Virus record (IMG/VR): IMGVR_UViG_2925891887_000001
Direction: 5' to 3' (one strand)
Source: a virus
Lineage: Duplodnaviria; Heunggongvirae; Uroviricota; Caudoviricetes
Length of the DNA: 64,000 bases
The notes beneath the pieces were generated by a model. It searched no databases. It was not told the origin of the DNA and worked only from the letters and a program-made list of their open reading frames with translations. A program made the translations under genes and the position numbers. Below, one piece after another: positions 49,410 through 64,000 of the stretch (position 1 is its first letter; each line of letters begins with the position of its first letter).

Positions 49410-49679
49410 GTGTCGCCATTAGAGCTACTGAACGTTCCTCTCACGATGTTCTGGATGCTCAGTCGCAATATAGACCGTCTGCGTGCGGAAGAGGATGTCC
49501 GCAACTTACAAGTCGCTCGTGCGTCCCAGGCGGATGGCGAGGCTGTGAAGGCGTTCATGGAGGGTTTGCAACTCAGGATTGGAAGACCAGTCGTAACAGA
49601 TAAAGTCTACGATCCAAGCCAGGATAAGGCAGACCCTGACGCCAAAGAGCAACTGATGCAAATATTTGGCAGAGGATGA
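49410..49679 (+). CDS. gpT-like segment, probably the -1 frameshift extension of the G-like chaperone
   Basis: ORF in -1 frame relative to G; both frames open over 49293-49329, which contains an A-run (cgaaaaag). Confidence 0.4.
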   Translation: MSPLELLNVPLTMFWMLSRNIDRLRAEEDVRNLQVARASQADGEAVKAFMEGLQLRIGRPVVTDKVYDPSQDKADPDAKEQLMQIFGRG

Positions 49680-49686
49680 CAAGGGA

Positions 49687-52600
49687 ATGTCACAAAACGT
49701 AGAGTTTATCCTGTCGCTGGAAGACAAACAGTTTACAGCGTCAATCGATCGTGCGGGGAAACTGCTTACTCGATTTGGTGAGCAGGTAACAAAGCCTGCT
49801 CAAAAAATCCAAACCTTTGAACGCTCTTTGGGTTCGGTCGCCCGTATCATTGGCGTTCTGGAAAGCAAGCTCGATTCTACGGCAGATAAACTACAGGATG
49901 TAGCTGCCGGTTTTGAGCTTGCTTCAGATGCTACGCGTAAAATGCGTGGCAACATCACCAGCCTCAATTCTGGTCTTAAAGCCCTGATTGAGCGCGTCGA
50001 TACGACAACTTCTTCAGTAGATAAACTCACCGCGTCATTACGTAAAGTGCAATCAGAGCTAAATGATTTCTCTGATTGGGCGACCTATGCAAGCAAAAGC
50101 GCAAGCCGCTTTGGTACGGAGGTCAAAGAAGCCTCTGCGTCCGTGAGTGGCATGAATACGCGCCTTAATACCACGACGAAGCGACTCAGTAATTGGGGTG
50201 TCTCAACGAGTCAGGCTGCCGAGGGACTGAAAAAGGTTCGTGAGCAGATGGACGAAGTTATCGGACGTCAGCAACTGATTAGCAAGCCGGTACGCGTTCG
50301 TACATCTGGAGGTAGCGATGGTGGCAGCGGGCGGCGTAGCGGCTCTGGCCATAGCGGTAAAAGTAACGAAGGAGGTATGTTCTCTGGCCTTCGTGGCAAC
50401 ATTTTCCTGCTTGGCGAGATCGGAGATGCAGCCAGAACGGTTACTGACATCATGTTTGGGTGGCAGAAGCCTATTGTTGAAGCTGCGGCCGAAATGGAAC
50501 GTATGCGGGTGATGCTTCGAGGGTTGAATAAGGAGAAGTCCAACCCGGGCCAGGCTGCCGCTGATGATATGAAGTACATCGTAGACATGGCTCAAAATGC
50601 GCCGTTCGCGATGCAGGCGTTAACAGACTCCTTCGTGAAGTTTCGTTCTGCTGGCTTAGATCCAACCGATGGTTCTCTGAAGGCGCTGGTGGACTCCGTT
50701 GCTCGTTTTGGTGGTGATAGTGAGCTGTTGAAACGTGCGGCTGTGGCCGTTCAGCAGATGTCCGGTAAGGGCGTTGTGTCAATGGAAGAGCTACGTCAGC
50801 AATTAGGTGAAGCCGTTCCTAACGCGATGCAGGCAATGGCAGACGCCGCAGGCATCACTATGGGGGAACTGACTAAAGCCGTTGCCAGCGGTACGGTTGA
50901 GGCAAAACAGGCGTTGTCTCTGATGTTTGTTGGTCTGCGTGCGGAGAATGAGAACGCAGCGAAAGACATGATGCAAACCTACACAGGTGCGCTGGCGCAA
51001 CTTCAGACGTCATTCACGTTATTTGCTGATCGGGTTGGTCAGGCCGGATATCTGGATTCTCTATCGAAGGGGATGAAAGAACTGGCTTCAATCATGAATA
51101 GCGCCGAAGGGATTTCGTTTGCCAATTCTTTAGGTTCGGGGTTAACAACGGCAATCGATGGGTTGCGTCAGCTTGCTCAATGGTTAGCAAAGAACCAAGA
51201 GCTGGTAATTAATCTCGGTAAGGTCGTGGCCGCGATGGTTGCGTTCAAACTGATGCGAGCAGGGATCATGGGGGTAGTTGGCGCTGGGAGCCAGATGGTT
51301 AGCACCTTTGCCACGATGGCGACCGCCATACAGACTCCATTTAACCTCGGCGCTACAGCAGTAACTCGATTCAATCGTGCGGCACGTATGGGGCTGGCTC
51401 CGATCCCCTCTCTTATTTTCGCCATCCGTGGGGCGATTACGGGGCTTAAAGGCGCTTTTGCTGGATTAACGGCGTTCATTGCAGCAAACCCTATAGGGGC
51501 AGCATTTACAGTTGCCACAGTAGCTGTTGCTGGCCTAATCACGTACATGACCATGCTCCGCAGCGAAACTTCAAAGGTCGTTGACGAGATTAGGAAAATA
51601 CCAGAGGCGATGACGGCGGCCAAACGTGCACAGATGGCGGAGTATAAAGCGCGTCTTGAGCAACAAATCACGCAAAAGGAACAAGAGTTAAAATCTGGCG
51701 AAAAGGTGGTTTATGGGCCGGGTATGGCCGGAACTACAGTAAAGATTAATCAGGATGAACGTAAGCGTATAGAAAATGAGCTAAATGACCTTCGTGAGAA
51801 ACGCGATAAAACTACTGGGGCAATTGAACGCGGAGACACTGCTGTAGCCAAACGTCTTGCAAAAGATGCGGCAGAATCACAGATAGAGAAAATACGGGAA
51901 GAGAATAGAGACTTTGCGGCAACATTCGCTAAAGCTCGTCAAGAGGCTCTGGATAAGATCCAGAAAATCAATGATGACGGTTCACTTTCAGATGACGAAA
52001 AGAACAAGCTATTGGCACCGTTACGTGAAACGGTAAACAAAAGCTATCTGGAGCCTGCGCAAAAACTGGTTGATTCACTTTCTTCTCGTAAGAATGCGAC
52101 CGAGAAGCAAATTGCGACTCTTAATGATCAGCTTGAAAAAGCCAAAAAGGATGGAAATACCGAGCAGATCCAGAAACTGCAAGGCAGTATTCGTGGTTAT
52201 CAGGAGCATTTGGAAGCCGTTGCTCAGGAGCTGACTCAGGCAGAGTTCGAGAGAGATAACGCGGCCAAAACTGGTAAGGGCGTAATGTCAAACCAGGGGA
52301 CTGTTCTTGGGTTAGGTACAACTGATAAAGCTGCTCAGAAGGCGCTGGCGCAATATATGCGAAACCAGATGGATTCTGCGACTTATCAGCGTACTTTGCC
52401 TGACGGCACTCCGATGATGGACTTCGAAGGTAAGCCGATTATTGGGCCTAAACAACTCAAGACGCAGCTTAATTTGCAGAAAGCATCCAGCGCCAGCTCT
52501 CTGGAGAAAATGAGCGATGAAGAGCGTGCCGCAGCCATTGCTGCACTGACTAAAGCTCGTGAACAGGATGCCGCAGCCGCCGAGAAAGCAGCCCAACGAT

Positions 52601-54261
52601 CAGCTAACGCCTCGCAGCGTGCGGCCAAGAAGGAACAGGCAGCGCAACAGAAACTGGCAGCCGGATACCAGAAGGCTCTGGACAAAGCCGATCAGCTTAT
52701 GGGGCAAATGGGTGAAAGCTCTAAGGCTACGGTATCGTTTGATCAGTCTCTTCGCGATACAACGAAATCGCTGACAGATTTGGCTAATGCGGTTCCTAAC
52801 GAGTTCATCACTCAAGAGATGATCGACAAGGCGAAAAAACGTCTTGAAGACCTCAAAAATGCGACACCTGAATATCGCGAGATGTTTAATCGCCGCAATG
52901 TTGAGCAGATGATCTCCACCTGGGCACCGGAGGCGGATTCCATTATTAGTGCTGGCTATACGCCGTCTCGCGAAGAGAAAGTTGCTGATTTCGAAGACAC
53001 CTACAACCGCAATCTCAAAGCGTTGATAGAACTTCGTGATAAGGCGTCTGATCCTAAAGTTGTGGCGCTTTATACAAAGAAAATCAATCAACTGATTGCT
53101 GCTGGCAATACCGCGCTTATTAAAGAGACGGGGACTGCGACGCAGAAGTTGGCACTGGAATACGAAAACCTGGCAGAGCAGATCGAAAGCACCTGGACTG
53201 ATTTGTTTAGTGGCTTAACTGATGTCCTGACTGATTTCGTTATTAACGGGAAGATGAGCTTCTCCAGCCTATCTCAGTCCATTTTGAAAGATATCACCAA
53301 TATGGTCGTGAAGTCGCAAATCACGCTGCCTCTAATGAACATGTTGGGGATGGGAACCACCGCAGCTGGTAGTTCACAGAGTGGCAATTTGCTCACTGGA
53401 GTTGCTTCTGCCGTTGCCAATCAAGGTGTACGAATGGGCAACACTGTTAATGGCGACAAGTCGGTAGGAGAAGCCACGAAGGAGACGTCCAGTTCGGTAA
53501 CTGGATTGGGGCAAACAACACAGCAGACCACCAGCGCAATTGGCACAGCAACAAATGCGATTGGTAGCTGGGTATCGGGGCTATTTGATAGCACCGAAGC
53601 CAAAGATGCTGAGACAAAAGCAGTGAAGGACTCCATCTTCTCGATGCAGAACCTCAGCTCTGTTACCGGCGCTCTGTCTGCCGCGTTTGCAATGCTTGGA
53701 GCTAATGCTTCCGGCTCTGGTAATAAGTGGTTGAATTTCGGCGCGACAGTTGCATCTGGTTTGGTTTCAGTATGGGCTGGTGGTGGATTCGATGGATTGA
53801 TGTCCGGTTCTTCTGGCTCAACTTCCGGGTTCAACAATCTGACCAGTTCTGCTGCCGATGGCACGAATGGTATTCCTGCAATTCCGAAGTTTGCAAATGG
53901 TGGCATATTCGGAAAAGACGGCGTGATCCCGCTCCGGGCATACCAGAAAGGCGGTATCGCCAACTCACCTCAATTGGCGTTGTTTGGGGAAGGCGATATG
54001 AATGAGGCGTATGTTCCATTGCCTGATGGCCGAACAATCCCTGTAACGCTCAGTACCGATGGTATGAGTGGAGGCGGAAATGTTCTTTCTCCTGTATCAA
54101 TTGAGATCAACGTCCATAGTGACGGTAGCACGACAGAATCCGGCGATACAGAAAGCATATGGAACAATGCCGCTCAACGGATGAAAGCAATCGCGCTTGA
54201 GACTATCGCTCAAGAGAAACGCCCTGGCGGATCACTCAACCCAAACACTCAACGTAACTAA
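49687..54261 (+). CDS. tail tape measure protein
   Basis: About 1525 aa, coiled-coil rich with hydrophobic segments; canonical position. Confidence 0.9.
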   Translation: MSQNVEFILSLEDKQFTASIDRAGKLLTRFGEQVTKPAQKIQTFERSLGSVARIIGVLESKLDSTADKLQDVAAGFELASDATRKMRGNITSLNSGLKALIERVDTTTSSVDKLTASLRKVQSELNDFSDWATYASKSASRFGTEVKEASASVSGMNTRLNTTTKRLSNWGVSTSQAAEGLKKVREQMDEVIGRQQLISKPVRVRTSGGSDGGSGRRSGSGHSGKSNEGGMFSGLRGNIFLLGEIGDAARTVTDIMFGWQKPIVEAAAEMERMRVMLRGLNKEKSNPGQAAADDMKYIVDMAQNAPFAMQALTDSFVKFRSAGLDPTDGSLKALVDSVARFGGDSELLKRAAVAVQQMSGKGVVSMEELRQQLGEAVPNAMQAMADAAGITMGELTKAVASGTVEAKQALSLMFVGLRAENENAAKDMMQTYTGALAQLQTSFTLFADRVGQAGYLDSLSKGMKELASIMNSAEGISFANSLGSGLTTAIDGLRQLAQWLAKNQELVINLGKVVAAMVAFKLMRAGIMGVVGAGSQMVSTFATMATAIQTPFNLGATAVTRFNRAARMGLAPIPSLIFAIRGAITGLKGAFAGLTAFIAANPIGAAFTVATVAVAGLITYMTMLRSETSKVVDEIRKIPEAMTAAKRAQMAEYKARLEQQITQKEQELKSGEKVVYGPGMAGTTVKINQDERKRIENELNDLREKRDKTTGAIERGDTAVAKRLAKDAAESQIEKIREENRDFAATFAKARQEALDKIQKINDDGSLSDDEKNKLLAPLRETVNKSYLEPAQKLVDSLSSRKNATEKQIATLNDQLEKAKKDGNTEQIQKLQGSIRGYQEHLEAVAQELTQAEFERDNAAKTGKGVMSNQGTVLGLGTTDKAAQKALAQYMRNQMDSATYQRTLPDGTPMMDFEGKPIIGPKQLKTQLNLQKASSASSLEKMSDEERAAAIAALTKAREQDAAAAEKAAQRSANASQRAAKKEQAAQQKLAAGYQKALDKADQLMGQMGESSKATVSFDQSLRDTTKSLTDLANAVPNEFITQEMIDKAKKRLEDLKNATPEYREMFNRRNVEQMISTWAPEADSIISAGYTPSREEKVADFEDTYNRNLKALIELRDKASDPKVVALYTKKINQLIAAGNTALIKETGTATQKLALEYENLAEQIESTWTDLFSGLTDVLTDFVINGKMSFSSLSQSILKDITNMVVKSQITLPLMNMLGMGTTAAGSSQSGNLLTGVASAVANQGVRMGNTVNGDKSVGEATKETSSSVTGLGQTTQQTTSAIGTATNAIGSWVSGLFDSTEAKDAETKAVKDSIFSMQNLSSVTGALSAAFAMLGANASGSGNKWLNFGATVASGLVSVWAGGGFDGLMSGSSGSTSGFNNLTSSAADGTNGIPAIPKFANGGIFGKDGVIPLRAYQKGGIANSPQLALFGEGDMNEAYVPLPDGRTIPVTLSTDGMSGGGNVLSPVSIEINVHSDGSTTESGDTESIWNNAAQRMKAIALETIAQEKRPGGSLNPNTQRN

Positions 54262-54459
54262 CTATCGACTGCCCCGACCGGGGCAGTCTCACAAGGATGT
54301 GAGATGGAAAGACAAACGTTTAATTGGTATCCAGATTACGAATCTGAAAAGAGCGTAAAACCGAATGTAACGGTACTTAATTTTGGTGATGACTACGAGC
54401 AGCGACAGGCTCAAGGTCTTAATCGTATTAAAGAAGAATGGTCGGGTAATGACTCCAAC

Positions 54460-54963
54460 TTATTGATAGTGTTTTATGTTCAGATAATGCCCGATGACTT
54501 TGTCATGCAGCTCCACCGATTTTGAGAACGACAGCGACTTCCGTCCCAGCCGTGCCAGGTGCTGCCTCAGATTCAGGTTATGCCGCTCAATTCGCTGCGT
54601 ATATCGCTTGCTGATTACGTGCAGCTTTCCCTTCAGGCGGGATTCATACAGCGGCCAGCCATCCGTCATCCATATCACCACGTCAAAGGGTGACAGCAGG
54701 CTCATAAGACGCCCCAGCGTCGCCATAGTGCGTTCACCGAATACGTGCGCAACAACCGTCTTCCGGAGCCTGTCATACGCGTAAAACAGCCAGCGCTGGC
54801 GCGATTTAGCCCCGACATAGCCCCACTGTTCGTCCATTTCCGCGCAGACGATGACGTCACTGCCCGGCTGTATGCGCGAGGTTACCGACTGCGGCCTGAG
54901 TTTTTTAAGTGACGTAAAATCGTGTTGAGGCCAACGCCCATAATGCGGGCAGTTGCCCGGCAT
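54460..54963 (-). CDS. insB: IS1 InsB reading frame (transposase made as InsAB' by frameshift)
   Basis: ORF in -1 frame overlapping insA 3' end; matches IS1 insB. Confidence 0.85.
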
Positions 54964-55157
54964 CCAACGCCATTCATGGCCATATCAATGATTTTCTGGT
55001 GCGTACCGGGTTGAGAAGCGGTGTAAGTGAACTGCAGTTGCCATGTTTTACGGCAGTGAGAGCAGAGATAGCGCTGATGTCCGGCGGTGCTTTTGCCGTT
55101 ACGCACCACCCCGTCAGTAGCTGAACAGGAGGGACAGCTGATAGAAACAGAAGCCAC
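54882..55157 (-). CDS. insA: IS1 InsA
   Basis: [43 protein letters not shown]... matches IS1 InsA. Confidence 0.9.
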
Positions 55158-55498
55158 TGGAGCACCTCAAAAACACCATCATACACTAAATCAGTAAGTT
55201 GGCAGCATCACCGAATGGTCGTTAACCTTTACCAGATCATACAACGAAATTAATGCAATCGATGACTTCCTGACTGAGCGAGCAGGCGTTGAGTCGTTCT
55301 ATTGGGTTAATCCAAGAGGAAAACGGATTGTAGTTGTATGTGACAGTCATACGGTCAAGCGATATCAGGGGTACTGTGTCTTAACTGCTACATTCAGACA
55401 AGTATTTGAGGCTTAAGTATCTGGATAAGTAAGTACTAATTTACTATCATTGTGGCGCTGACAGGATGTTAGCGCCTACTTATTTCAAGGATGAAACA

Positions 55499-56197
55499 AT
55501 GGGAATTAAAGCTGATATTCAGAGCTTATCTCCCTCTGCACTCATTGAGTTGTTCGTACTGGATATGTCGAACACAACTTCAGGGGGGAAGTTATTCTTC
55601 CACGCCGGAACAAACGAACTGATGCAACCTGTCGTCTGGCAAGGAGTGACATACGAGCCGTGGCCAATCAAAGCATCAGGCTTTGACAAAACTGGCCAGG
55701 GAACGTTGCCACGTCCAAAAATTCAGGTATCGAACTTTGCCGGAACCGTCTCTGCGGAAGTTCAGGCGAACGACGATCTTGTTGGCTGCCGCATTATTCG
55801 CAAGATGACGCTGGCTCGCTTCCTCGATGCCGTTAATTTTAAAGACGGCAACCCAACAGCAGATCCAAACCAACATTTCCCGGATGAAATGTGGTTTATC
55901 GAACAGAAAACGCTCGAAACTCATCAGGTTGTCGAGTTTGAGTTGTCCAGTGTGTTCGATTTGATGGGGGTGCAACTGCCGTATCGTCAGATCATTAAAA
56001 ACACCTGCCCGTGGAAATACCGAGGGCCAGAATGCGGCTATACCGGTCCATATTTCGACAAAAATAACCAGCAGACGTCTATGTCTGGTGCTGATTACTG
56101 CACAAAACGTTATGACGCCTGTAATGCGCGTCGGAATTATTTTGCCAACGGAGTGATCCATTTTGGCGGGTTTATTGGAGCTACGCGATATGGGTAA
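55499..56197 (+). CDS. minor tail protein gpL-like
   Basis: WQGVTYEPWPIKASGFD, ARFLDAVNF, C-terminal cysteine cluster (CPWKYRGPECGY, CTKRYDAC) as in lambda L; SD AAGGA. Confidence 0.8.
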   Translation: MGIKADIQSLSPSALIELFVLDMSNTTSGGKLFFHAGTNELMQPVVWQGVTYEPWPIKASGFDKTGQGTLPRPKIQVSNFAGTVSAEVQANDDLVGCRIIRKMTLARFLDAVNFKDGNPTADPNQHFPDEMWFIEQKTLETHQVVEFELSSVFDLMGVQLPYRQIIKNTCPWKYRGPECGYTGPYFDKNNQQTSMSGADYCTKRYDACNARRNYFANGVIHFGGFIGATRYG

Positions 56198-56987
56198 TAA
56201 AGCAATCCCTGAGCTTGGCTCTGATGTTATGCAGCAAATCTATCTCTGCGCCATAAATCGCTACCCTAATGAAGCGTGTGGCTTTCTGGTGAGAACTAAT
56301 GGCGACAAATATCGCTTTATGGAAGCGCGAAATGTTTCGGAGAACCCGCAGAACACTTTTGTAATGCACGTTGACGACATTATAGCGGCAGAGGATGCAG
56401 GTGACGTAATCGCAATCTGGCATTCACATACTGATGAATCAGCAGAAGCATCTGATGCCGATCGTGCAGGCTGTGAAGCGACGGAAGTTCCGTGGATGAT
56501 TCTGGCTATTCGCAAGAATGTTGAGGGAGATGCCCCTTTCCATTTTAGCGAGATGAATGTGATCACACCTGATGGTTTCGAAATGCCATACCTGGGTAGA
56601 CCGTATGTATTTGGCGTATTCGATTGCTGGATGTTGTGTCGGGACTATTTGAAGCGTGAGTTTAACGTCGAGCTTAACCCGAACGCACACCTGCATATTC
56701 CATCGTGGTACACCGGCGATAACGACATTCTCGACCAGAACTACCGAAACGAAGGGTTGGTACGGCTTGCGCCTGGAACAGAGCCTCAACGTGGGGACGT
56801 CTTCTTTATTCAATACGGGAAAATGCCAGATCACTGCGCGGTTTATATCGGCGATGGAATGATTCTTCATCACCAGATCGACCGTCTTAGTTGTCGTGCT
56901 TATTACGGCGGAATGTATCAGAAACATACGACGCATCACTTGCGTCACAGAGACTTGCTCAAGGGAGATGAGACGTGTCTGAGTTAG
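56190..56987 (+). CDS. tail tip protein gpK-like (MPN/JAMM plus NlpC/P60 domains)
   Basis: JAMM-like IWHSHTD...D motif and NlpC/P60-like Cys/His (FDCWMLCRDY ... HH). Confidence 0.7.
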   Translation: MGNKAIPELGSDVMQQIYLCAINRYPNEACGFLVRTNGDKYRFMEARNVSENPQNTFVMHVDDIIAAEDAGDVIAIWHSHTDESAEASDADRAGCEATEVPWMILAIRKNVEGDAPFHFSEMNVITPDGFEMPYLGRPYVFGVFDCWMLCRDYLKREFNVELNPNAHLHIPSWYTGDNDILDQNYRNEGLVRLAPGTEPQRGDVFFIQYGKMPDHCAVYIGDGMILHHQIDRLSCRAYYGGMYQKHTTHHLRHRDLLKGDETCLS

Positions 56988-57568
56988 TTCATGTGCAGCT
57001 TGGCGGACCTATGGCTAAACATTTTGGTCGCCACTGGCATCTAAAGGTGCGCAATACAAAACAGGCTCTGGATTTAATTGAAGCCAACAAGCCTGGGTTT
57101 AAAGCATGGATGAAGCGCAATATCAAAACCTATGACAGTTACCACATCCAGATCACCAATAAACAGGGCCACAAGTGGTCTGTTGACGAAAGTGAATATC
57201 AGATGATGGGGCAGTCTGACAACATTGCCAAAATCCGCATTACACCTGTTCCGCGAGGAAGCGGTGGATCTGCTTTTGGGTGGTTTCAGACGGTAGTAGG
57301 GGCCGCTTTGTTGGTTGTATCGGCGGTAGTGATGCCTGCTTTAGCACCTCTCGGTTTGTCACTGATGATGGGCGGCATATCACAAATCATATCGCCGCAA
57401 GCCACTAACGAAAGTGTGAGACAGGCAGATAACTCGAACTCTTATTATTTCGACGGCCCTCAAAATACAGAAAACCAGGGCAACCCAGTACAACTTATCT
57501 ATGGCGAGGAAATTCTGGTTGGCTCACAGGTTGTGAGTTCTTCAATCACGATTGACCAGCTAATGTAA
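56975..57568 (+). CDS. tail assembly protein gpI-like
   Basis: GTG start; hydrophobic central segment and C-terminal LIYGEEILVGSQVV typical of lambda I-type proteins. Confidence 0.65.
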   Translation: MSELVHVQLGGPMAKHFGRHWHLKVRNTKQALDLIEANKPGFKAWMKRNIKTYDSYHIQITNKQGHKWSVDESEYQMMGQSDNIAKIRITPVPRGSGGSAFGWFQTVVGAALLVVSAVVMPALAPLGLSLMMGGISQIISPQATNESVRQADNSNSYYFDGPQNTENQGNPVQLIYGEEILVGSQVVSSSITIDQLM

Positions 57569-57585
57569 ACAAGGATTTTTTGAAC

Positions 57586-60500
57586 ATGGAACAGTTCAAG
57601 AAGAAAAAGCTACCGCTGTTTATTGCCGGTGCGGGTGGTAAAAAAAGCAGCAAAAGCTCTAGTCGTACACCGGTTGAAGCCGACGATACCGTAAATTCTC
57701 GTGCAATGGCCGCTATCCTCGATCTTCTTGGGGAAGGGGTAATTGGCGGCTTAGTAAATGGCGCAAGATCTATTTTTATCGACGATCTGCCGATTGTAAA
57801 TGAAGACGGTTCCTCCAACTTCAGCGGAATCACATGGGATTTTCGCGACGGTTCACAAGACCAGACTCCAATGTCTGGCTTTGATTTCGTTGAAACGCCT
57901 AAATCCGTCAATATCCAGTTAAAAAAAACACATTATGTAACGGTTTCAATCGATAACGATGAAGCTGATCGGGTTCGTGTCATCATGAAGTTTCCTTCTT
58001 TGCGAAGCATAGATAAAAAAACTGGTGACACGAACGGTACGACTGTTGAGTACAAGTTCCAGATAGCAAATGGCGACTCAACATTTGTAGATGTGGTCGC
58101 GGAAGGTGAAAAAAGCGTTGGCATTAAGCTAACAGCAAAGAAGACCGGCGTTTATTACCGTAGCTACGAGCTGAAGCTGCCTAAGCCTGGACGCGCATAC
58201 AAGGTTCGTGTAGTCCGTATTACCGATGATAACAGTAGCCAGTATCTCTATAACGATACATGGGTGGATTCAATCGGGGAAATTGTCGATACACCGATGA
58301 ACTATCCAAACTCTGTTTTGGTTGGATTGAAGGTAAACTCTGAGCAATTCGGCAGCACCATGCCATCTCGCTCTTATCTGGTGCGTGGCCTAAAAATTCG
58401 AGTACCTTCAAACTATAACGAGTCCAGTAACACTTACGCTGGGGTATGGGATGGCACTTTTAAGCTGTTGTCTTCTTCGAACCCCGCGTGGATTCTCTTT
58501 GATTTGCTGACCAATGCTCGATATGGCCTTGGTCAGTATGTGTCGGAATCTATGATTGACCTTGGCCAGTTGTACCAGATTGGTCGATATTGTGACGAAG
58601 AGGTCGATGATGGCTTTGGTGGCAAAGAGAAACGCTTTGCAATCAATACGCAGATCACCAGTCGACAGGACGCATACCGGCTAATTCAGGATATTGCCGG
58701 AGCATTCCGCGGCATGGTGTTTTGGGCTGGTGGGATGGTTAACATCATGCAGGATAGCCCATCAGATCCGGTAATGATGTTTACCAACTCTAACGTCAAA
58801 GATGGATTGTTTACCTATAAAGGTTCTGCGCGTAAAGATCGCCCATCCGTTGCGCTCGTAACCTACAACAACAAGGAGGACGGTTATAAGCAAAACATCG
58901 AGTACGTCGAAGATCAGGACGCAATGCGCCGTTATGGTGAGCGTAAAACAGAAGTCGTAGCATTTGGCTGTACAAGCCGAGGGCAGGCTCACCGAGTTGG
59001 TTTGTGGCTTTTATATACCGCCAGAATGGAGTCGGATGTAATTACATTTACTGCCGGCTTAGACGCGTCATTTCTGATGCCTGGTGAAACCGTTCTGATT
59101 CAGAACAAATATCGCGCAGGCAAACGTAACTCAGGTCGAATTGTGGCGTTTACCAAAAACAGCGTCACACTCGATGCGCCTGTGTCGTTAGCCAAAGGCG
59201 GCTGCTTTATTCGAATACTGAATCAGGAAGGCAAAATCGTTGAACGCGATGTTCTTGAAACTGGCGAAAATATAACAAAAGTTACGTTTTCAAAAGCCCT
59301 GTCTTCGGCTGAAACGCCTGTTTTGAACGGCGTCTGGACTATTACAGAACCAGACCTCGAACCTATGCGCGTTCGCATCGTTAACATCGCGCAGGGGGAA
59401 ACGCCGGGTAGCTTTGACATCACCGCTGTTGAGAACAATCCGTCTAAATATGAGGCAATCGACAATGGTGCAACGCTGATCCCACAGAATACGACGGTAT
59501 TGGACCCAACTTACTCCAAGCCATCTAATCTGCAAATCACTGAAGGGACTTATCTCTCAAGCCCGGGCAACCTGTCAGTAAAACTGACTGCAACATGGGA
59601 AGGGAAATCTCCAGAGTATTGGATCAGTTGGCGACGTTCTGATGAAAACAATGTATCGAACTGGCAATCGGCGCGTGTAACCGAAGAGCAATACGAAATC
59701 GTTAATGTCGCGGAGAATGGACGCTACGACTTCCAGCTGTATGCGGTTTCATTCAACGGTAAAAAAACAGAGATTATCAGTACCGTTTATCAGGTGTTGG
59801 GCACAATGACACCGCCGGATGCCCCAACGTCATTAACGGCCGTTGGAGACTATCGTAATGTGATACTGAATTGGGTTAATCCAGATTCGGTAGACCTTGA
59901 TCACATTAATGTTTACGCATCCCAGACCAACAATCTGGATACGGCGAAACTGATCGCAGAGTCTGCAAGCACCACCTTTACACATGCTGGTCTTGGGGAT
60001 AGCGAAACGTGGTATTACTGGGTTCGAGCATCGAACAAGCGAGGTATGTTAAGTCCTCCGAACTCAAACTTGGGTACAGAGGCGACAACTCGCGATGTAC
60101 TGTCGTTCCTGACTGGCAAAATTACATCTTCCGAGCTTGGTCAGGCTCTGCTTGAGGACATCAACAGCAAAGCCTCTCAAGAAGCAGTTGACGAGTTAAA
60201 TGAGCATATCAACCAGAGCGTCGAATCTTTGGAGGGGGCGGTAAACGACGTTAAGGAAGATATAGCTGAATTAGATAAGCAGTTCAGCGATAACCTCGCG
60301 GATTTTGAAATAAAATTCAACGAGCGTAGCGATGCTTTGGAGAACGCACAAACCGAGCTTAAAGGTGAGGTTTCGGCAACGATCGACAAGGTCAATGAAG
60401 CGTTTGAAAAAATTGATGCTACTGATGCTGCAATTGTTGAAATCGAAAACACCGTATCTGAACACGATAAAGCTCTCGCTAATACAGTCGAGGCAATAAA

Positions 60501-62313
60501 GGCTGCAAGAGATGAAGCGGCGGCTCTTATTGCTAAGGAAAGCGAGGCTCGTGTTGAAGGCGATGCTGCAAACGCTAAACAACTGGAAGTGTTGCAGTCA
60601 ACGGTAGAGGAAAGCTCCGCTGCCGTTGAAGAAATGAAAAAGACGGTTGCAGAGGTCGATCGTGCCAGTGCAGAACTGACTACGAACATTGAAGCGTTAG
60701 CTAAAACAAATATTGACCTGGCTCTTCGTCAAGATGAAGACCAGCACAAGCAGATGGTCAATAACGCGAAGATCGCAACAACACAGAAAACCTTTGCTGA
60801 TGATATGTCCGCAATGGCCACGAAGGTTGAGGAAATTCGCGTAGAAATTGGCGAAGACATTAAGGCCAGTATTCTGGAAGAGTCCACCGCTCGTGCCGAT
60901 GGCGATGAAGCGTTGGCAAAGCGTGTCACTCAGCTGCAATCTAAGTTTGAAGGAGATATCAGCGCGGCGATTAGTACAGAGCAGGAGGCTCGTACATCTG
61001 CCGATGAAGCTCTGACGACACAAATCACTCAGCTTGAGTCGAAAGTAAGCAACGATATCGTCGCAGCTATTAAGGAAGAGCAAGAAGCCCGAGCAACGGA
61101 AGATTCGGCTCTGGCAAGCCAGATCACCCAACTTCAGGCAAAAGTTGATGATGATATTTCTGCTGCAATACGCAGTGAGCAGGAGGCCCGAGCAAGCGGG
61201 GACTCTGCGTTAGCCAAACAAATAAACCAGCTTCAGTCAAAGGTTGACGGTGATATATCCGCTGCCATCACTCAGGAGCAGGAGGCCAGAGCAAGTGCTG
61301 ACCAGGCGCTCTCACGAGAAATTAACAGCCTGCGAGCACAAACCGGAACTGATATTGCCGCAGCGGTTGCTGTAGAGACAAAAGCAAGGACTGATGCCGA
61401 TAGTGCATTGTCTACCCAGATTACGTCTCTTACAGCAAAAGCTAATGATCTCAAGGCGTCTCTTGCCAGAGAAACAACGGCTCGTGCAGATGGTGATACC
61501 GCTTTAACAAAAGAGGTTTCAAGTTTAAAAGCACAGACAGCGAAAGATATTAGTGCGGCCGTTGCAGTTGAAACGCAGGCTCGAACTGATGCTGACTCGG
61601 CGTTGTCGTCTCAGATCACCAAGCTGACCTCTCAATACAAAGAGGATATTAAAGCGGCTGTAGCAACCGAAACGAAAACGCGTACAGAGCAAGATGCTGC
61701 ATTGGCGACTCAAATCACAAACTTAGAGTCTCAAACGGCAGCCAACATTTCCGCGGCGGTCACAACTGAAACGAAAGCGAGAACGCAGGCAGATAATGCT
61801 CTGAGTGGGCGAATCGATACTCTGAAAGCAGAGGTGAATGGAAATACCGCGACAATTCAACAGCAGGCAACAGCTATTGCTGATACCAACAAAAAAGTGT
61901 CAACCGCGTGGACGTTGAAAATGGAGACTTCAACGAGCGGAGGGCAGAAGTATGTTGCCGGTATTGCGCTTGGTATTGACACCACTGGGCTATCTCAGTT
62001 TTTGGTTCAGGCGGACAGGTTTGGTTTGGTCAACTCTGTTAACGGGAAGATCACAACGCCATTTGTTATCGAAAACAGTATCGCCTATATGAATGGAGCG
62101 TATATCAAGGATGGCACAATCACCAATGCAAAAGTAGGCGATCTGCAATCTACCAATTTTGTTAGCGGTAGATCTGGATGGCGGTTCGGCAAAAATGGAA
62201 CGCTTGAGATCAACGGTAATAGCGGCGGCAATGGGCGATTGGTTATAAATGGTCAGCGGATTGACGTTTATGACGATAACAACGTCCTACGAGTAAGAAT
62301 TGGCCGTCTGTGA
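57586..62313 (+). CDS. central tail fibre / host specificity protein gpJ-like
   Basis: About 1575 aa; colinear with lambda J over the N-terminal about 700 aa (NYPNSVLVGLKVNSEQFGS, GVWDGTFK, DAFGCTSRGQAHRVGLWLL); long internal repeat region. Confidence 0.85.
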   Translation: MEQFKKKKLPLFIAGAGGKKSSKSSSRTPVEADDTVNSRAMAAILDLLGEGVIGGLVNGARSIFIDDLPIVNEDGSSNFSGITWDFRDGSQDQTPMSGFDFVETPKSVNIQLKKTHYVTVSIDNDEADRVRVIMKFPSLRSIDKKTGDTNGTTVEYKFQIANGDSTFVDVVAEGEKSVGIKLTAKKTGVYYRSYELKLPKPGRAYKVRVVRITDDNSSQYLYNDTWVDSIGEIVDTPMNYPNSVLVGLKVNSEQFGSTMPSRSYLVRGLKIRVPSNYNESSNTYAGVWDGTFKLLSSSNPAWILFDLLTNARYGLGQYVSESMIDLGQLYQIGRYCDEEVDDGFGGKEKRFAINTQITSRQDAYRLIQDIAGAFRGMVFWAGGMVNIMQDSPSDPVMMFTNSNVKDGLFTYKGSARKDRPSVALVTYNNKEDGYKQNIEYVEDQDAMRRYGERKTEVVAFGCTSRGQAHRVGLWLLYTARMESDVITFTAGLDASFLMPGETVLIQNKYRAGKRNSGRIVAFTKNSVTLDAPVSLAKGGCFIRILNQEGKIVERDVLETGENITKVTFSKALSSAETPVLNGVWTITEPDLEPMRVRIVNIAQGETPGSFDITAVENNPSKYEAIDNGATLIPQNTTVLDPTYSKPSNLQITEGTYLSSPGNLSVKLTATWEGKSPEYWISWRRSDENNVSNWQSARVTEEQYEIVNVAENGRYDFQLYAVSFNGKKTEIISTVYQVLGTMTPPDAPTSLTAVGDYRNVILNWVNPDSVDLDHINVYASQTNNLDTAKLIAESASTTFTHAGLGDSETWYYWVRASNKRGMLSPPNSNLGTEATTRDVLSFLTGKITSSELGQALLEDINSKASQEAVDELNEHINQSVESLEGAVNDVKEDIAELDKQFSDNLADFEIKFNERSDALENAQTELKGEVSATIDKVNEAFEKIDATDAAIVEIENTVSEHDKALANTVEAIKAARDEAAALIAKESEARVEGDAANAKQLEVLQSTVEESSAAVEEMKKTVAEVDRASAELTTNIEALAKTNIDLALRQDEDQHKQMVNNAKIATTQKTFADDMSAMATKVEEIRVEIGEDIKASILEESTARADGDEALAKRVTQLQSKFEGDISAAISTEQEARTSADEALTTQITQLESKVSNDIVAAIKEEQEARATEDSALASQITQLQAKVDDDISAAIRSEQEARASGDSALAKQINQLQSKVDGDISAAITQEQEARASADQALSREINSLRAQTGTDIAAAVAVETKARTDADSALSTQITSLTAKANDLKASLARETTARADGDTALTKEVSSLKAQTAKDISAAVAVETQARTDADSALSSQITKLTSQYKEDIKAAVATETKTRTEQDAALATQITNLESQTAANISAAVTTETKARTQADNALSGRIDTLKAEVNGNTATIQQQATAIADTNKKVSTAWTLKMETSTSGGQKYVAGIALGIDTTGLSQFLVQADRFGLVNSVNGKITTPFVIENSIAYMNGAYIKDGTITNAKVGDLQSTNFVSGRSGWRFGKNGTLEINGNSGGNGRLVINGQRIDVYDDNNVLRVRIGRL
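60880..61840 (+). repeat. about 10 tandem about 99-bp (33-aa) repeats within J-like gene
   Basis: Units of form E(Q/T)(E/K)AR(A/T)xADxALxxQITxLxxKVxxDISAAIxx. Confidence 0.65.
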
Positions 62314-62343
62314 TGGTGGAAAAAAAATTTTATATCGGTAAAA

Positions 62344-62366
62344 ATAGGTAGGTATATACTTAATGG
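62344..62366. promoter_or_regulatory. motif B element ATAGGTAGGTATATACTTAATGG
   Basis: Between J stop and side-fibre start. Confidence 0.4.
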
Positions 62367-62406
62367 CGGGCAAGGATAGCCCGCCAAATCAAGGAGCATA
62401 TTCAAC

Positions 62407-64000
62407 ATGTGGTACAGGGAAGGTACTATCACATTTACACAGGGCAGCAATACTCTGGTTGGGGCAGGGACAGCCTGGAACGTAACAGCTAATGGTGTGT
62501 TGCCGGGGATGATCGTCATTGGCCCCGACAATAAGCTGTATGAGATCAAGCGCGTAACCAGTGATACGAACATTGTTCTCTCAGAACCTTATACCGGCGA
62601 AACTCAGTCTGAAGTTCCGTGCCGAATCATTACGACCTATGAAGGCGACTTAACACAGTTTAGCGCGCGCTTTACTGCGCTAATGTCGCGTATGTCGGCT
62701 GATTCCAAGTCCATACGCAGTTGGTTGACTGCGCTGGATGAGGTGACAATCGAGCGTGAAGACGGTACAGAAGTGACCGTTAAGCCGCTAATGCAGATCG
62801 TCAACGAGCACAACGAAAACGTTGAGTGGTATAAAAATAACACTGACGCGATTGATGCTGCTGGCGACAAAGCTCGTGAGGCGGCGGCCAGTGCTGCCGC
62901 AGCAGCAAAAAGCGCCAATGCCGCTGGAGAAAAAGCCTCTCAAGCGTCTCAAAGTGCATCCGCTGCGGCATCCTCACAAAGTGCCGCAAGTGCGAGTGCA
63001 ACTGCTGCGAAAAAATCTGAAACGAATGCTGCAGCGTCACAAAAATCTGCAGCCACTTCTGCATCCACCGCGACCACGAAGGCGTCAGAAGCTGCCACCT
63101 CAGCCCGGGATGCGGCGGCCTCAAAAGAGGCAGCGAAATCATCAGAAACGAGCGCAGCCTCGAGCGCCAGTAATGCCGCTTCCTCGGCAACGGCGGCAGG
63201 AAATTCCGCGAAGGCGGCAAAAACGTCCGAGACGAACGCCAGGTCTTCTGAAACGGCAGCGGGACAGAGCGCCTCGGCTGCGGCAGGCTCAAAAACAGCG
63301 GCTGCGTCGTCTGCCAGTGCCGCGTCAACAAGTGCCGGGCAGGCCTCAGCCAGTGCCACCGCCGCCGGAAAATCGGCAGAAAGTGCCGCATCGTCTGCTT
63401 CAACTGCCACAACGAAGGCTGGCCAAGCCACTGAACAGGCCAGCGCAGCAGCGAGGTCTGCTTCCGCAGCGAAGACATCCGAAACGAACGCGAAAGCGTC
63501 GGAAACCCGTGCAGAATCCTCAAAAACGGCAGCCGCATCGTCCGCCAGTTCGGCGGCGTCATCGGCATCATCGGCGTCTGCTTCAAAAGATGAGGCGACC
63601 AGACAGGCGTCAGCAGCGAAGGGCAGCGCCACGACGGCATCCACGAAAGCAACAGAGGCGGCAGGCAGTGCGACGGCAGCATCTCAGAGCAAAACTGCTG
63701 CTGAATCCGCTGCGACCCGTGCGGAAGCTGCTGCTGATCGTGCTGAAGAGATTGCCGGTGCAGTTGCGATGGAAGACGCAAGCCTTACAACTAAAGGTGT
63801 TGTGAAACTTAGCAGTGCTGTCGACAGCACCAGTGAATCGCTGGCCGCAACGCCAAAAGCAGTTAAAGCAGCCAATGACAATGCGAATAGCAGGGTGCCA
63901 TCTAACCGAAAAGTTAACGGTAAAGCACTGACTGCGGATATCAAATTAACGCCGAAAGATATTGGTACTTTAAATTCAGTAACGATGTCTTTCTCTGGCG
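62407..64000 (+). CDS. side tail fibre protein, lambda Stf-like (3' end beyond window)
   Basis: SD AGGAG; long Ala/Ser/Thr-rich collagen-like segment nearly colinear with lambda Stf as I recall it (KTSETNARSSETAA..., ATPKAVK); frame open to window end. Confidence 0.85.
   Translation, partial: MWYREGTITFTQGSNTLVGAGTAWNVTANGVLPGMIVIGPDNKLYEIKRVTSDTNIVLSEPYTGETQSEVPCRIITTYEGDLTQFSARFTALMSRMSADSKSIRSWLTALDEVTIEREDGTEVTVKPLMQIVNEHNENVEWYKNNTDAIDAAGDKAREAAASAAAAAKSANAAGEKASQASQSASAAASSQSAASASATAAKKSETNAAASQKSAATSASTATTKASEAATSARDAAASKEAAKSSETSAASSASNAASSATAAGNSAKAAKTSETNARSSETAAGQSASAAAGSKTAAASSASAASTSAGQASASATAAGKSAESAASSASTATTKAGQATEQASAAARSASAAKTSETNAKASETRAESSKTAAASSASSAASSASSASASKDEATRQASAAKGSATTASTKATEAAGSATAASQSKTAAESAATRAEAAADRAEEIAGAVAMEDASLTTKGVVKLSSAVDSTSESLAATPKAVKAANDNANSRVPSNRKVNGKALTADIKLTPKDIGTLNSVTMSFSG

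Follow-up and report, generated by a model that had tools for sequence, protein, structure and literature searches.

A probable T1- and F-pyocin-type central fibre with a ten-unit shaft, and a mosaic side fibre, in an SSU5-like phage-plasmid

How is a central tail fibre built when about 1 kb of coding repeats separates its lambda J-like half from its C-terminal end, and what is the side fibre encoded behind it? The question is raised by positions 57586-64000 of a 64,000-nucleotide (nt) stretch of viral DNA (Caudoviricetes; IMG/VR record IMGVR_UViG_2925891887_000001), hereafter the window, which carry a gene for a J-like protein followed by the start of an Stf-like side-fibre gene. A preliminary description, made from the letters alone, had proposed that the repeats change copy number by slippage and can act as a fibre-length or host-range switch. 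We found that both host-recognition fibres of an SSU5-like phage-plasmid are encoded here, and that this element is already in the databases, where it is annotated as J plus tail fibre. The probable explanation of what we observed is that the central fibre is of the type known from phage T1 and the F-type pyocins, with a hub, a helical shaft and a tip of the PF09327 family, that the repeats are a module that sets shaft length, and that the side fibre is a mosaic.

The identity of the element was clear from DNA comparison. In DNA identity to the window over 57586-64000, Escherichia phage Cyrano (OV696614) came to 99.1% and phage CMS-2020a to 97.9%. Cyrano, an SSU5-like phage-plasmid, corresponds to plasmid pLF82 (NC_011917) of E. 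coli LF82 in phage form (PMC9928086). It has the same J (1575 amino acids, aa; ten units; 99.1% identity to CYRAN_20, annotated as 'tail host specificity protein J') along with the same start of Stf, with essentially no difference, and the two are the same element. SSU5 itself differs in having five units and another Stf shaft and tip. Across window 60100-62313, the part of J that bears the repeats, plasmid NZ_CP195468 was 100% identical. This part was matched in 179 of 5426 complete E. coli genomes (about 3%), on plasmids in every case, and in 290 PLSDB records, among which were plasmids of Shigella, Salmonella, Citrobacter, Enterobacter and Yersinia pestis.

We then compared the J-like protein with lambda J by BLASTP and with Pfam (the coordinates of all features are collected in Table 1). 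The conservation of its N-terminal half with lambda J, noticed in the preliminary description, was confirmed: aa 18-859 aligned with lambda J 2-835 at 32% identity (E 8e-116), and Pfam recognized FNIII-A_GpJ (aa 102-236, E 1.5e-29), Phage-tail_3 (aa 358-521, E 1e-35) and fn3 (aa 745-824). A second alignment joined aa 1420-1511 to lambda J 841-931 at 34% identity, and PF09327 (formerly DUF1983) was common to both proteins, at aa 1423-1557 of J and 845-972 of lambda J. Since the flanks align to lambda J 2-835 and to 841 onward, the 560 residues at aa 860-1419 represent an insertion into a place that five residues occupy in lambda. The C-terminal end had also been described as a distinct domain. 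It is not, as the tip is homologous to lambda J 841-972 and only the terminal receptor-binding domain of lambda is absent: PF12421 (Ig_GpJ_C, LamB-binding) was detected by Pfam in lambda J (1001-1132, E 4.5e-74) but not in the window J, which stops 18 aa past PF09327. Among the relatives, some do carry PF12421 (proteins P0031 and P0068). The window J is therefore a member of the lambda J/TipJ family by its hub domains, its gene position and PF09327. With lambda J it has in common the hub and fibronectin region and the straight-fibre domain PF09327, whereas it differs from it by a 560-aa shaft and by the lack of a LamB-binding end.

Numerous proteins that the databases call 'host specificity protein J, partial' (P0070-P0116) were 100% identical to the window J, with ends scattered between aa 950 and 1090. 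These ends fall in the proximal shaft, at about window 60430-60850, and some of the proteins are encoded on contigs of about 100 kb (P0100, for example, 973 aa, on a 109-kb contig). They could be due to frameshifts, to sequencing errors or to true pseudogenes.

Table 1. Features of the two fibre genes at window positions 57586-64000.
Feature	Window coordinates	Strand	Evidence
J-like central tail fibre/tail-tip gene	57586 (ATG)-62313	+	Open reading frame, 1575 aa plus stop; Pfam; Cyrano CYRAN_20
Lambda-J-like hub and fibronectin-type domains, aa 1-859	57586-60162	+	BLASTP to lambda J; Pfam FNIII-A_GpJ, Phage-tail_3, fn3
Non-repetitive acidic proline-free helical shaft segment, aa 860-1089	60163-60852	+	Missing from lambda J; composition; hydrophobic period
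Ten tandem 33-aa units (one of 32 aa), aa 1090-1419, predicted coiled-coil shaft	60853-61842	+	Unit hidden Markov model; identity matrices; AlphaFold2
Distal beta-rich tip, aa 1420-1575, Phage_Tail_Tip PF09327	61843-62310	+	Pfam E 1.3e-41; lambda J, T1 gp33 and F2-pyocin alignments
Stf-like side tail fibre gene, 5' part (531 of 1341 codons)	62407-64000, cut by window end	+	Frame translation (frame of 62302); Cyrano CYRAN_21, 1341 aa
Stf N-terminal beta-barrel, aa 1-76, homologous to F2-pyocin side-fibre docking domain	62407-62634	+	Profile match
Lambda-stf-like Ala/Ser-rich Stf shaft segment	62980-64000	+	Sliding identity; megablast

The inserted residues contained no proline, only 12 glycines, and carried a net charge of -48. 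The proximal segment, also free of proline, accounted for a charge of -29 and had a hydrophobic period of 3.56, and the repeat block had a period of 3.65. This last value is that of a hendecad (11/3), so that the 33-residue unit corresponds to three hendecads. In an AlphaFold2 (AF2) model of J aa 1255-1575, one continuous helix ran across the last five units (pLDDT, the predicted per-residue confidence, 84-96) and was followed by beta strands. This run used a 34-row alignment and a monomer, gave a predicted TM-score (pTM) of 0.28 and a poorly packed tip, and cannot address the beta-prism state considered below. If the shaft were fully helical, at 0.15 nm per residue it would by arithmetic measure about 84 nm in total, with about 50 nm for the repeats and about 5 nm for each unit.

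The repeat block was then looked at unit by unit. Nine of the units have 33 aa and one has 32 aa, and their consensus is x-D-I-x-A-A-[IV]-x-x-E-x-x-A-R-x-x-x-D-x-A-L-x-x-x-[IV]-x-x-L-x-x-x-x-x, where D2, I3, A5, E10, A13, R14, D18, A20, L21 and L28 are near-invariant and positions 7 and 25 are I or V. Against a hidden Markov model (HMM) of the unit, each scored 44-58 bits (independent E values of 1e-15 to 1e-19), scores that are circular because the HMM was built from the same ten units. Independent support for the unit comes from other phages, in which this HMM detected 5-10 units, and from lambda J, where it detected none. The HMM also showed one degenerate unit further upstream, at aa 980-1007. 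At the DNA level the picture was different. The preliminary description had placed about ten tandem 33-aa repeats at 60880-61840, and ten protein units are indeed present, at the borders given in Table 1, but its wording of near-tandem 99-bp repeats overstates how alike their DNA is. Tandem Repeats Finder returned no 99-bp array in 56000-64000, and a tandem repeat of DNA was rejected on this result. A repeat search recovered copies spaced by 99 nt at 60-73% identity, in partial stretches only. When all units were compared in codon alignment, their DNA identity averaged 52% and did not exceed 64%, and no exact word longer than 12 nt was common to two of them. The units are thus a repeat at the protein level only, old and diverged in DNA. 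A literature search on phage PhiR41_1, one of the relatives, and on descriptions of the 33-aa repeats gave nothing relevant.

These properties bear directly on the slippage-prone contingency locus proposed at first, in which frequent changes within populations in the copy number of 99-bp coding repeats would switch fibre length or host range. In its favour, and as the preliminary description would have it, unit number does vary among relatives. We counted nine units in PhiR41_1, ten in CP054387 (one of them degenerate), five in SSU5, 4-7 in proteins from Salmonella, Cronobacter, Citrobacter and Yersinia pestis, and one in a common 1229-aa E. coli phage-plasmid allele, while metagenome proteins have up to nine or more. 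However, the units are so diverged in DNA, with no array and no long common word, that they offer no substrate for replication slippage. The variation within the element was assessed with window 60100-62313 (2214 bp) as a query against PLSDB and all complete E. coli genomes, which gave 162 and 164 full-length matches, respectively, at 97-100% identity; about 150 distinct records were among the matches listed. Nearly all of those listed span exactly 2214 bp (2212 bp with trimmed ends), the exceptions being two insertion sequence (IS) insertions, two records off by 1-2 bp and four records shorter by 99 bp. In the complete E. coli genomes, all but three of the approximately 110 distinct full-length plasmid records listed had the query length, IS insertions aside. 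The matches listed from PLSDB were similarly stable, with one deletion record.

The few 99-bp deletions, found in near-identical plasmids, also speak for some change in copy number. They are in frame and lie at two different sites: 61201-61299 (units 4/5) in NZ_CP081702, where the junction is inside a near-identical stretch of about 20 nt, and 61139-61237 (units 3/4) in pPEC178_2 and NZ_CP027358. A plasmid from the sister strain AH04 that is almost equal in size, NZ_CP081707, likewise lacks 99 bp, at a position left unmapped. Both mapped sites fall in the units that are most similar to each other (3-5), and these losses of a single unit look like rare recombination events. Altogether, these results indicate that unit number evolves slowly and in whole units and that the repeats are a stable structural module, not a fast switch; we regard a contingency locus as very improbable. 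In two E. coli plasmids, NZ_CP029421 and NZ_CP085184, distal J was interrupted by an IS3-family element (ISEc52, IS1203), and these phage-plasmids are probably incapable of making infectious tails.

We next looked at relatives of known structure. The best matches of J among Protein Data Bank (PDB) sequences were the F2-pyocin tail fibre 25vf (E 5e-153), T1 gp33 (9l9p_S, E 5e-132) and lambda J (8iyk). The last 357 aa of J alone matched T1 gp33 with an E value of 5.6e-27, in an alignment that reached the final residue of the T1 protein (...LRVQIGRL against ...LRVRIGRL), and the F2-pyocin fibre with an E value of 2.1e-22, over both shaft and tip of the pyocin. T1 gp33 thus has the tip, the C-terminal ending and the 33-residue shaft unit of the window J, but it carries this unit about three times in nearly identical copies, whereas the window J has ten diverged ones. 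In T1, the C-terminal 350 residues of gp33 were too flexible to be resolved, and a prediction gave an alpha/beta fibre about 37 nm long (PMC11945409). The central fibre of F-type pyocins (PyoF10/PA0641; 25vf) resembles J in its lambda-like hub, its long helical shaft, its beta-prism tip and in having no lambda receptor-binding domain. The two differ in the length of the shaft, about 560 aa in the window J and about 165-180 aa in F-type pyocins, and in its construction: that of J is made of ten 33-aa hendecad-type units, and the pyocin shaft is described as mainly heptad with a stutter (bioRxiv 10.64898/2026.02.24.707460). As part of the explanation given at the outset, and with the same degree of confidence, these alignments suggest that the central fibre belongs to the coiled-coil type of phage T1 and the F-type pyocins. 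By analogy, the shaft would be a trimeric coiled coil.

The side-fibre gene starts 93 nt after the stop codon of J, and the order of lambda J-like hub, repeats and Stf-like side fibre given in the preliminary description holds. From 62407 to about 62930 it was 70-88% identical to the SSU5 fibre gene and unrelated to lambda stf (about 40%), as measured by sliding identity. From about 62980 onward the relation was inverted, with 80-90% DNA identity to lambda stf and only about 55-65% to SSU5. Megablast likewise found 86-94% identity to many lambdoid side-fibre genes, starting at window 62931. Stf is therefore a mosaic with a recombination junction at about 62930-62980, and the modular exchange of host-recognition cassettes that had been suspected for this region is real for this gene. 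The earlier label of a lambda Stf-like side fibre applies to the Ala/Ser-rich shaft but not to the N-terminus, which is of the pyocin type. The shaft had further been called collagen-like; on reading, the sequence translated from 62407-64000 abounds in Ala, Ser and Thr and has no Gly-X-Y periodicity (no pattern count was run), so that this term does not fit.

PF08400, the N-terminal domain of prophage tail fibres with which lambda Stf starts, was absent from the Cyrano and SSU5 fibres and present in lambda orf-401 (E 2.7e-75). Instead, a profile of the Stf N-terminus made from 17 relatives matched residues 3-73 of the F2-pyocin side fibre 25ve_A (E 8.4e-7), that is, the domain which has been demonstrated to dock on the pyocin shaft (PMC13455828; bioRxiv 10.64898/2026.02.24.707460). 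This match was seen only with the profile: phmmer with the full Cyrano fibre against the PDB returned only distal segments of P1/Mu S and T4 gp34, and a homologue search with the Stf N-terminus gave only close and mostly fragmentary relatives. The F-pyocin side fibres (PyoF13/PA0643/PA0646; 25ve) thus have an N-terminal domain homologous to that of the window Stf. They end in an R-pyocin-like tip, whereas the window Stf goes on with a lambda-type Ala/Ser shaft and then a distal part like that of P1/Mu S; the C-terminal part of the Cyrano protein, beyond the window, has Gp34_trimer and P1/Mu S-like segments. According to tblastn, 66 phage records contain fibre or tailspike genes that begin with the Stf N-terminal domain. 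Pseudomonas phage phita81A and Serratia phage ZDD2 have the gene with this domain behind a long J-like protein of similar C-terminal sequence (annotated as DUF1983 in ZDD2).

Two open reading frames (ORFs) of 326-327 aa, 62801-63781 (-) and 62822-63805 (+), were rejected as genes, being alternative frames of the Ala/Ser-rich Stf region. Their translations are rich in Arg, Pro and Gln and look like by-products of the GCN/TCN codon bias. Several Stf fragments from phage-plasmid contigs of 105-109 kb (P0123, P0131 and P0132) shift to an alternative frame (PLKRLKVHPL...) at about window 62900-63000, where the Ala/Ser-rich region sets in. Frequent frameshifts in stf, as in laboratory lambda, may be the cause, or else assemblies may be prone to errors here. 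Lambda stf has nothing that corresponds to about 300 nt of the Ala/Ser-rich shaft at window 63277-63577, and the length of this low-complexity shaft differs among phages.

What could so long a shaft do? Three studies of F-type pyocins from 2026 are relevant. In the F7 pyocin, a coiled coil of 163 residues refolds to a beta-prism upon receptor binding, the tip opens and the tape measure is ejected; mutations that block the prism abolish killing, and the same switch was predicted in 21 of 24 siphophage central fibres (PMC12874032). In the switching region the pattern is SxSxxMxxLxS, and an acidic residue at M is often accompanied by an Arg four positions away (PMC12874032). In pyocins the alpha-helical shaft bears the side fibres (PMC13455828; bioRxiv 10.64898/2026.02.24.707460), at a single docking site located at a kink (PMC13455828), and the contact between the two is electrostatic (PMC12874032, PMC13455828). 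We searched the 330-aa repeat block for the pattern in forward or reversed direction and obtained 27 matches, three per unit, against 5.5 +/- 2.3 in shuffled sequences, where the matches overlap and the units are copies of each other. The M position was acidic in 17 of the 27, and all 17 had an Arg four residues away, while the other ten had a hydrophobic residue or Lys at M. Because the ten units are mutual copies and the matches overlap, the motif is consistent with a switch but not proof of one. An assignment of each unit to three separate 11-residue strands was tried and given up, as it came out unclean, the motif matches overlapping at offsets 5, 13 and 20.

From these data the following mechanism may be proposed. 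J passes from its lambda-like hub into an acidic, proline-free shaft of about 560 aa, predicted to be helical, and ends in a beta-rich PF09327 tip. The repeats would be a module that sets the length of a trimeric coiled coil, adding about 5 nm per unit, and their number would shift by whole units through rare recombination over evolutionary time, without any slippage switch. Trimers of Stf could be docked by their N-terminal domain on the coiled-coil shaft of J, as they are in the F2 and F7 pyocins, and upon engagement of a receptor the shaft might refold to a beta-prism, so that the tip opens. Docking and fold switch have both been demonstrated in F-type pyocins, and here we infer them from homology. 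The ten-unit shaft, about three times the F7 pyocin segment, would then be an extra-long 'spring' passing over from a coiled coil into a beta-prism and, at the same time, a docking platform for lambda-type side fibres. We propose this last step tentatively, as a possibility.

Several observations weigh against this mechanism. The AF2 monomer gave only helix for the repeats, so that the beta-prism state is without support from the modelling done here. The register is hendecad-like, against the mainly heptad one of the pyocin shaft. The enrichment in the motif is not independent, as ten copies of one unit give the same three overlapping matches. The docking site of the pyocins, an acidic kink with Gly, was not located in J when aa 830-1165 were aligned to PDB sequences, an alignment in which the repeats alone found partners, and the proximal shaft none. 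Genes like PyoF11/F12 are absent after J, unlike in F-type pyocins: the sole ORF of at least 30 aa that starts between J and Stf (62363-62485, 40 aa) runs into Stf in another frame, and the Cyrano record has no gene annotated there. Finally, phages of other tail types also have the Stf N-terminal domain on their tailspikes and fibres, which makes of it a general anchor domain whose partner here, the J shaft, is presumed.

Some of these points would suit a passive spacer, in which the shaft only fixes the distance of the tip (for example through O-antigen or capsule), does not switch its fold, and Stf has its place at another site of the tail tip, like Ur-lambda Stf, which attaches around the distal tail protein. 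The helix-only prediction, the departure from the mostly heptad pyocin register (bioRxiv 10.64898/2026.02.24.707460) and the general nature of the Stf anchor, present on tailspikes too, all agree with it, as does the tolerance for 1-10 units across E. coli phage-plasmids. On the other hand, a pyocin fibre that is known to switch has homology to the last unit and to the tip (PMC12874032), a switch motif with Arg-acidic pairing is present in every unit, and Stf does not have the ring-forming PF08400 domain of lambda, its closest solved relative being the pyocin domain that docks on the shaft. A purely passive shaft is in our opinion rather unlikely. It could also be thought that the units are a binding surface, each one docking a side-fibre trimer or binding host polysaccharide directly. 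Ten near-equivalent acidic units could indeed offer repeated sites, and the contact in pyocins is electrostatic (PMC12874032, PMC13455828). Yet pyocins have one docking site only, at the kink (PMC13455828), a common E. coli allele manages with a single unit, and Pfam found no match to a carbohydrate-binding family in the shaft. Such a role for the units is hardly to be expected.

Fibres of other phages at comparable loci were also looked at. In the Klebsiella SSU5-like phages vB_KpnS_p4727 (L006 6001-14604) and vB_Kpn_1825-KPC53 (L008), the J hub is shared, with 75% DNA identity over the first 2.6 kb. There, the J ORF extends over more than 2868 aa with no stop codon in the locus and has matches to other helical families (SlyX, apolipoprotein-like) and no 33-aa units. 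Aeromonas phage phiARM81mr (L010 6992-10423) has a structural gene that begins with the Stf-type N-terminal anchor domain. It is followed directly by a gene for a '23S rRNA-intervening sequence protein' and by a retron-type reverse transcriptase, an arrangement that resembles a fibre-directed diversity-generating retroelement. In Serratia phage vB_SlqS_ZDD2 (L012 634-5967), the J-like protein of 1777 aa has a very long helical region with units related to the 33-aa repeat and a duplicated segment, SVASVS[N/S]RLEAVAQAEAENAINIDQSKEEQRKINASITNEQKVIA, found twice about 240 residues apart. Behind this J lie a pair of small genes and a fibre that has the Stf-type N-terminal domain, in an order like that of pyocin clusters.

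Directly upstream of J in the window, the ORFs at 49666-57568 are the counterparts of the Cyrano tape-measure protein (TMP) and of M, L, K and I, which are homologues of lambda proteins. The tail of the Cyrano virion was measured at 259 +/- 12 nm, against 230 nm expected from the length of the tape measure (PMC9928086). This excess, which the paper does not discuss, might come partly from the tip and the central fibre. For SSU5, a passage of PMC12312913, citing Kim et al. 2014, names the lipopolysaccharide (LPS) core as the receptor, for the fibre adhesin gp22.

The type of fibre described here has already been reported in 2025-2026. What the present analysis adds is the hendecad shaft of ten units and its stability in the population, the series of length alleles, and the link between the Stf N-terminus and the docking domain of pyocins. 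For annotation, this means that the repeats are not hypervariable, that J has no lambda-type receptor-binding domain, and that the N-terminal domain of Stf is pyocin-type and not lambda-type, from which its mode of attachment may be deduced. More broadly, where non-contractile tails find the energy for opening and crossing the envelope is an open question, for which the pyocin structures of 2026 propose a fold switch in shafts of this kind. If the spring and docking platform were true, E. coli and Salmonella phage-plasmids would offer, in their natural alleles of 1, 5, 9 and 10 units, a series with which shaft length could be tested against reach and penetration energy. Phage-plasmids are inducible and genetically tractable, and with their natural alleles of shaft length they may provide an E. 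coli model for both the switch and the attachment of side fibres.

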